Virus genome (UHGV): UHGV-0189314
DNA: 27,150 nucleotides
Strand: one strand, 5' to 3'
Origin: a virus
The stretch's first letter is position 1, and each line of letters opens with the position of its first letter. The notes under the pieces were generated by a model. It had not been told where the DNA came from. It saw nothing but the letters and a program-made list of their open reading frames with translations, and made no database searches. Shown here one piece after another: positions 7-81 of the stretch. The translations under genes were made by a program, and so were the position numbers.

Positions 7-81
7 GCGGGCATCGTATAATGGCTATTACCTCAGCCTTCCAAGCTGATGATGCGGGTTCGATTCCCGCTGCCCGCTCCA
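7..81 (+). tRNA. tRNA-Gly, anticodon UCC
   Basis: 75-nt cloverleaf read directly: acceptor stem GCGGGCA/UGCCCGC, anticodon stem-loop UCAGC-CUUCCAA-GCUGA (anticodon UCC), T-arm GCGGG-UUCGAUU-CCCGC, encoded 3' CCA. Matches my recollection of enterobacterial tRNA-Gly(UCC) (glyT-type), but the downstream context is not the chromosomal glyT-thrT arrangement. Confidence 0.9.

Follow-up and report, generated by a model that had tools for sequence, protein, structure and literature searches.

The window analysed here, which is the whole stretch of 27,150 nt, carries at its left end a complete tRNA-Gly(UCC) gene (positions 7-81, + strand) that very likely belongs to the phage itself, as a tRNA of its late region. 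For lambdoid prophages, a tRNA gene that lies after Q and ahead of the lysis or toxin genes is an ordinary, well-known and indeed textbook arrangement, and this feature is already known; the window tRNA-Gly is annotated publicly both in RefSeq genomes and in GenBank KU052038. The identity, position and conservation of the gene and the codon bias of the late genes are described below as observed, whereas the mode of transcription, the processing and the benefit to the phage are what we infer from them.

The tRNA-Gly gene and its prophage context

ARAGORN finds a single tRNA in the 27,150 nt window, a tRNA-Gly with anticodon TCC and an encoded CCA at 7-81 (+), and Rfam family RF00005 covers positions 7-78 with 64.9 bits (gathering score 29; E = 3.4e-12). 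The match spans model positions 1-71 of 71 and the gene is therefore full length and not truncated, bearing out the complete tRNA-Gly(UCC) called in the first-pass annotation. It is identical to E. coli K-12 glyT at 75/75 positions. The GlyRS identity elements are U73, G1:C72, C2:G71, G3:C70, C35 and C36, all of which are present in the window tRNA because of its identity to glyT. The likeness to the chromosomal thrU-tyrU-glyT-thrT-tufB operon extends to the six bases 5' of the gene, but the 3' flanks are entirely unlike: in K-12 glyT is followed by 'agatgt' and then thrT, whereas in the window it is followed by 'gagaaacaagcc...' and then the holins, thrT and tufB are absent, and the remainder consists of prophage late genes. 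The chromosomal glyT-thrT-tufB context is thus missing 3' of the tRNA, as the first reading had it, and the spacing of ~740 bp that it gave between tRNA and holin is measured as 736 nt, with the first holin starting at 818.

The position of the gene is best seen in the prophage of E. coli Sx181-0-1 (L001), located between yjjG and prfC, to which window positions 5-27150 are 99.93% identical, with 16 substitutions and one 3-nt length difference. The left part of this prophage contains, in order, the integrase, the Dsr1 defence gene, early genes, RusA, KilA-N, DUF968 and Q, and the right part, beyond the tRNAs, contains two holins, the endolysin and lambda-like terminase, portal and capsid genes, followed by P2-like baseplate, sheath, tube and tail genes. 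The Q antiterminator gene lies at L001 19034-19405 in the reference annotation, and a four-tRNA array (L001 19768-20077, late-gene strand; anticodons CAT, TCT, TGT and TCC by ARAGORN) begins 363 nt past it, tRNA-Gly being the last gene of the series Ile2(CAU)-Arg(UCU)-Thr(UGU)-Gly(UCC). The CAU tRNA is assigned from its sequence as an Ile2 (lysidine) tRNA because it is called Ile by PGAP and is identical to phiP27 ileZ at 74/76 positions. The left end of the window falls 6 nt before the fourth tRNA of the array, and Q and the other three tRNAs thus lie outside it; the right end stops ~140 nt before a DinI-like gene at the right prophage end. A gene for an alpha/beta-fold hydrolase near that end (25887-26666, - strand), with counterparts 91-93% identical in other prophages, is probably cargo. 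We also note two adjacent 98-nt copies (24032-24129 and 24140-24237; ~91% identical, period ~108 nt, seen as off-diagonal BLAST hits), a repeat pair (24032-24237) near the 3' end of a tail-fibre-like gene at 23062-24279.

The same order of genes recurs among relatives. A human-gut metagenome contig (L049; 42.8 kb, run ERR589753), which was reached through a variant-specific window protein, the S49 prohead protease, is 100.000% identical to window positions 5-19269, a poly-G tract included, and has the normal phage arrangement of Q, the Ile2/Arg/Thr/Gly array and holins. The exact holin protein occurs in contigs in 223 index blocks; Q ~1.4 kb upstream and a Thr-'tat'-Gly junction are present in all ten of the long contigs shown, and the four-tRNA array in each of the five of these that were scanned with ARAGORN. 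The phage-type 3' junction is found in 21 IMG/VR contigs, the Thr gene directly preceding Gly in all (~20) that reach upstream, and in the ~35 related contigs in which the 5' flank was read the order is always Q, one or more tRNA genes ending in Gly(UCC), and holins, most with Thr(UGU) directly before Gly. The tRNA with the phage-type 3' flank is present in 294 of 5426 complete E. coli genomes (~5%), and a lone tRNA-Gly follows Q and a DNA methylase gene in other lambdoid backbones (L004-L006). The tRNA-Gly is a regular component of the late-region 'moron slot' in these phages. The phage itself is a prophage with a lambdoid head and a P2-type tail, related to phiP27 and to LT-II/Stx2k prophages, that integrates into the 5' end of prfC.

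The alternative offered in the first-pass annotation was that of a host tRNA marking an attachment site or a recombination scar. There is no integrase in the window, as that annotation had stated for the vicinity of the tRNA, and in the near-identical Sx181-0-1 prophage the integrase gene (L001 2458-3681) lies ~17.5 kb upstream. The prophage is attached within the 5' end of prfC, beside yjjG; the integrase is flanked by a leftover 5' fragment of that gene (L001 2163-2231), and at the right prophage end (right end of L007) the phage supplies a new N-terminal coding segment and start for prfC. Stx phages are known to insert both in prfC and at the site beside yjjG (PMC8065619). A direct repeat of the 3' tRNA segment had been suggested as a mark of an att site; a 25-nt 3' segment, sought with up to three mismatches, occurs once in the window, and there is no second copy of the tRNA 3' half there. 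The resemblance to tRNA attachment sites, in which attB lies in the tRNA 3' end, is that of a tRNA beside prophage DNA, but the window differs in having no adjacent integrase and no duplicated 3' segment and in the placement of the att site in prfC. We therefore reject a host tRNA used as att site and retain the other half of the pair of alternatives, namely that the phage carries its own tRNA, which agrees with the Q-tRNA-lysis order in relatives. The Dsr1 (defence-associated sirtuin) gene of the Sx181-0-1 prophage adjoins the integrase at L001 3864-7691.

Comparison with the Stx-converting lambdoid phages shows that their tRNAs (ileZ-argN-argO in 933W; ileZ-argO in phiP27) occupy the same slot, after Q (or Q and a DNA methylase gene) and before the holin, on the late strand. 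In phiP27 the order in this slot is ileZ-argO-stx2e-holin, and from window base 711 rightwards its holin region has ~91% identity to the window; Stx2a phages carry Arg, Arg and Met(CAU) tRNAs around stx2a (PMC7946995), and PMC6266700 makes no mention of tRNAs. Arrays of the window type differ in adding Thr(UGU) and Gly(UCC) as exact host copies, in having an Arg gene that is distinct from phiP27 argO (49/77 identity), and in that the array tRNAs are followed by a structured non-coding region and no toxin gene. The LT-II phage SerU-LTIIb (KU052038) also has tRNAs in this slot, and in it an annotated tRNA-Gly identical to that of the window at 73/75 positions (the U6:A66 allele) precedes the same structured region, after which comes holin1a. 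A second tRNA-Gly in this phage is 70/75 identical, has another 3' flank and precedes an intact holin1-holin2-endolysin cassette similar to that of the window. SerU-LTIIb differs in its LT-II genes, of which the window has none, in its two tRNA pairs (Arg-Gly and Thr-Gly) and in a duplicated holin fragment.

Origin of the gene and the left edge of the window

The array Thr gene is identical to host thrU at 76/76 positions, and the order of Thr and Gly is that of the host thrU-tyrU-glyT-thrT operon, although the two are separated by 'tat' in the phage and by tyrU and a 116-nt spacer in the host. The Gly gene is glyT, the Thr gene is thrU and their order is that of the host; the scenario that this makes most likely, judged from the sequences, is that both genes were captured from this operon and that tyrU was subsequently lost. 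Among relatives the Gly gene is found as the host-identical allele, as an allele with a compensatory change of C6:G66 to U6:A66, and as a few wobble-compatible variants, and the anticodon arm is invariant in every Gly allele seen. This pattern of compensatory changes around a fixed anticodon arm indicates a tRNA that would have been kept functional. In SerU-LTIIb (L002, KU052038) the tRNA-Arg(TCT) annotated at 1122-1197 has a thrU-like body and appears to be a captured Thr tRNA whose anticodon has switched from TGT to TCT.

At the extreme left edge of the window, positions 1-6 (+) read 'caggat', which is exactly how the host tyrU-glyT spacer ends. The same positions read 'ccatat' in most phage copies and 'cagtat' in the three lone-Gly prophages (L004-L006). 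Bases 5-6 ('at') are common to the phage context, and bases 1-4 ('cagg') are those of the chromosomal glyT flank and not the phage 'ccat', such that four of the six matching bases are informative against the common phage context. The host tyrU-glyT context upstream of the tRNA, which the first-pass annotation had named as the sign that would favour a chromosomal gene, is therefore formally present, but in four edge bases only. The 'cagtat' flank of the lone-Gly prophages was considered as a relic of the host glyT flank and rejected, local alignments of the upstream 120 nt and 30 nt being no better than those of shuffled sequences.

Four bases cannot settle the matter, but the host-like positions 1-4 are most likely an artefact of assembly or trimming at a 77-bp exact repeat, this being the length that prophage tRNA-Gly and chromosomal glyT share. 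We favour an edge artefact because an otherwise identical phage, that of contig L049, has the normal phage context. It is less likely that these bases are the trace of a genuine exchange in which the identical tRNA genes linked the phage array with the host thrU-tyrU-glyT operon. On a reading of this kind the window copy would physically be the chromosomal glyT joined to phage late DNA, either by a crossover within the 77 bp of identity or by a conversion or double crossover that copied host tyrU and its spacer by way of thrU and glyT arms, and this we hold to be very unlikely. The four informative bases would match the host spacer by chance with a probability of 1/256, and homology arms do exist, since thrU and glyT have exact copies in the phage Thr and Gly genes, whose order is also that of the host operon. 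Against this, the contig that is 100% identical to window positions 5-19269 has a normal phage array, and the junction formed by 'caggat', the tRNA and 'gagaaac' is absent from complete E. coli genomes and has no match in IMG/VR or JGI metagenomes. None of the 5426 complete E. coli genomes contains a 100% full-length match to the window, and the phage-type 3' junction has no match in GTDB representative genomes. Draft contigs do break inside this tRNA, as illustrated by a contig (L028) that starts in the anticodon loop, which makes an edge artefact plausible. The layout of Sx181-0-1 also bears on a simple crossover. Chromosomal glyT lies at 3,890,608-3,890,682 and the prophage tRNA-Gly at 3,473,275-3,473,349, both on the minus strand; they form direct repeats separated by 417 kb, and tufB, secE, nusG, rplKAJL and further core genes lie between them; because recombination between the two would be a lethal deletion of essential genes, a simple crossover is rejected for a chromosome of the Sx181 type. 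Short-read assemblies are broken or wrongly joined at this place by the exact 77-bp repeat that the prophage has in common with chromosomal glyT, and this probably explains the odd left edge.

The putative late leader, a predicted structured RNA and the lysis cassette

The 736 nt between the tRNA and the first holin contain three terminator-like hairpins on the + strand, identified by a consensus scan. The first is at 430-459 (hairpin 430-449, T run 450-459); the second, at 603-630, consists of TGCCTCCTTTCGGAGGCG and a T-rich tail (L049 2951-2968); and the third, at 777-802, consists of GGGCCGCTGGTGGCCC and TTTTTTATTT (L049 3125-3140) and lies immediately before the ribosome-binding site of the holin (window coordinates are L049 coordinates minus 2348). 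Eight terminator-like hairpins were found in the scanned region, where 2.3 were expected, and a hairpin with a T run is also visible after Q (L001 19483-19510). The layout of the hairpins between tRNA-Gly and holin looks like that of a Q-antiterminated late leader. A promoter-like sequence, TTGAAA-16-TATTAT, is located ~30 nt before the array, but such sites occur at chance level (four found, 3.1 expected). The lysis cassette that follows (818-2025, + strand) contains a holin (818-1210; PHROG 198, E = 9e-42), a second holin (1200-1478; PHROG 217) and a GH108 endolysin (1480-2025; PHROG 315), all transcribed rightwards, and these assignments are also backed by Pfam families and by the RefSeq annotation of a 99.9%-identical prophage. 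In close relatives (L039-L048) LT-II enterotoxin A/B genes sit between the holins and an M15 endolysin; the counterpart of this region in the window, at ~1478-3487, contains the GH108 endolysin and, at 2026-3487, a stretch poor in genes, and has no toxin.

Directly 3' of the tRNA is a region of 378 nt (82-459, + strand) that is predicted to be a conserved and strongly structured non-coding RNA, composed of a multi-branch domain (~105-202), a long hairpin (~207-290) and the terminator-like end at 430-459. Its folding energy is -148 kcal/mol, against -102 +/- 5.4 kcal/mol in shuffled sequences (MFE z = -8.6). When 15 distinct homologues are aligned, standard pairs fill 97.5% of the pair cells (38-50% in slid controls), and 13 pairs have changes on both sides, compared with 5.9 +/- 1.5 in shuffles, none of 500 of which reached 13. 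The alignment contains many G-U pairs, which argues for a + strand RNA rather than a DNA palindrome. Several lambdoid backbones contain the region together with tRNA-Gly. At threshold, 82-459 matches no Rfam family, a scan of positions 1-900 returning the tRNA and otherwise sub-threshold, hairpin-driven hits.

An RNA released from 82-459 may be analogous to a spacer of the host or to prophage-encoded anti-sRNAs. The 3' external transcribed spacer of the glyW-cysT-leuZ operon acts as an sRNA sponge. Prophage sRNAs that lie beside holin genes are known, as in the case of the Pas sRNAs (bioRxiv 10.64898/2026.05.13.724894). One tentative and rather unlikely scenario is that tRNA-Gly forms the 5' part of a two-part mobile module, in which a structured RNA of ~375 nt ending in an intrinsic terminator would be freed by 3' processing of the tRNA and would then serve the phage as a regulatory RNA, either in the lysogen or as part of the late leader.

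Two further features lie in this interval. A tract of ten G residues at 533-542 (+), identified by comparison of near-identical prophages, is 5, 6, 7, 8, 9 or 10 G long in prophages that are otherwise nearly the same, and could be either a slipped-strand hypervariable site or a hotspot of sequencing error. An open reading frame at 235-594 (+), annotated by RefSeq as 'hypothetical protein' in relatives (WP_122653682.1), overlaps the structured RNA and is shifted in frame by the poly-G variation. It has no PHROG match and, with its frame changing among relatives, is probably not coding.

Codon usage and the proposed role of the tRNA array

Codon usage was compared between the window's 29 late genes (7549 codons) and 48 K-12 genes (14,426 codons). 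The phage to host ratios are 5.4 for AGG, 3.8 for AGA, 2.7 for ACA, 2.5 for CGG, 2.4 for GGA (16.3 versus 6.7 per 1000, p = 6.5e-11), 2.2 for both CGA and AUA, and 1.8 for GGG (20.9 versus 11.7 per 1000). These eight include the top seven over-used of the 61 codons, GGG ranking tenth, and the codons cognate to the four tRNAs of the array (AGA, ACA, GGA and AUA) rank 2, 3, 5 and 7; by simple arithmetic, four random codons would all fall within the top seven with a probability of ~7e-5. A smaller comparison with flanking host genes gives a bias in the same direction. CGG and CGA are likewise enriched in the late genes, without a matching array tRNA. The match between codons and tRNAs is correlative and is no proof of benefit, as AT-richer phage DNA would be enriched in NNA codons anyway.

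Codon compensation is an explanation advanced for phage tRNAs (Bailly-Bechet 2007, as cited in PMC7946995), and in the passage of PMC7946995 that draws on that work the same role, the reading of rare codons, is proposed for the tRNAs of Stx phages. We lean, if only a little beyond an even chance, towards the array tRNAs serving codon supply for the late genes. The array would be transcribed by Q-modified RNA polymerase reading through the late-leader terminators, the weak promoter-like site just upstream of it being a second possible source of transcript, and the tRNAs would be excised by host RNase P and the 3' trimming enzymes. The Gly copy would be charged by host GlyRS because it is identical to glyT; for the same reason, expression of tRNA-Gly from the phage and from the host is indistinguishable. 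E. coli has one glyT gene, and the prophage would thus double the gene dose of the GGA/GGG reader, the extra copy raising the supply of a single-gene tRNA for codons that are about twice as frequent in late genes as in host genes. The other three tRNAs would likewise raise the supply for AUA, AGA/AGG and ACA.

Two other accounts of why the array is kept were weighed against codon supply. The tRNAs could be mainly spare parts against defences that cleave tRNAs, such as anticodon nucleases and P2 OLD, and host tRNAs that are cleaved can be replaced by those of a phage (PMC10264068). The preferred substrates of P2 OLD are tRNA-ThrU and tRNAs that combine A37 with CNG motifs at 28-30 and 40-42 (PMC12445682); the array includes Thr(UGU), and the glyT anticodon arm, UCAGC-CUUCCAA-GCUGA (window 33-49), has CAG, CUG and A37 as read from its sequence. 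However, neither the Gly nor the Thr copy differs from its host counterpart and the anticodon arm shows no variation among the alleles seen, so that both would be cleaved just as the host tRNAs are. In the OLD study host tRNA-ThrU gave little or no protection, and tRNA-Gly is not mentioned there (PMC12445682). Evasion of such nucleases by sequence change is excluded on comparison of the genes, leaving a dose effect as the form that this defence would take, and we consider a mainly protective role highly doubtful. It is similarly improbable that the tRNA is a passenger without benefit of its own, consisting of host DNA that entered a permissive slot by illegitimate recombination and that serves mainly as homology for mosaic exchange among lambdoid phages. 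The varied upstream partners of tRNA-Gly across lambdoid backbones (Thr, an Arg derived from Thr, or a DNA methylase gene) do resemble a recombination joint, but the cloverleaf is preserved through compensatory changes, the module has reached ~5% of complete E. coli genomes, and the codon match of all four tRNAs would have to be coincidence.

As a discovery the tRNA matters little. The unannotated structured RNA and the variable poly-G tract are maybe of more interest than the tRNA itself, and the structured RNA is the only element that might repay further work. What the array does provide is an unusually good match between its four tRNAs and the most over-used late codons, which makes it a neat system in which to test codon supplementation by a temperate phage.
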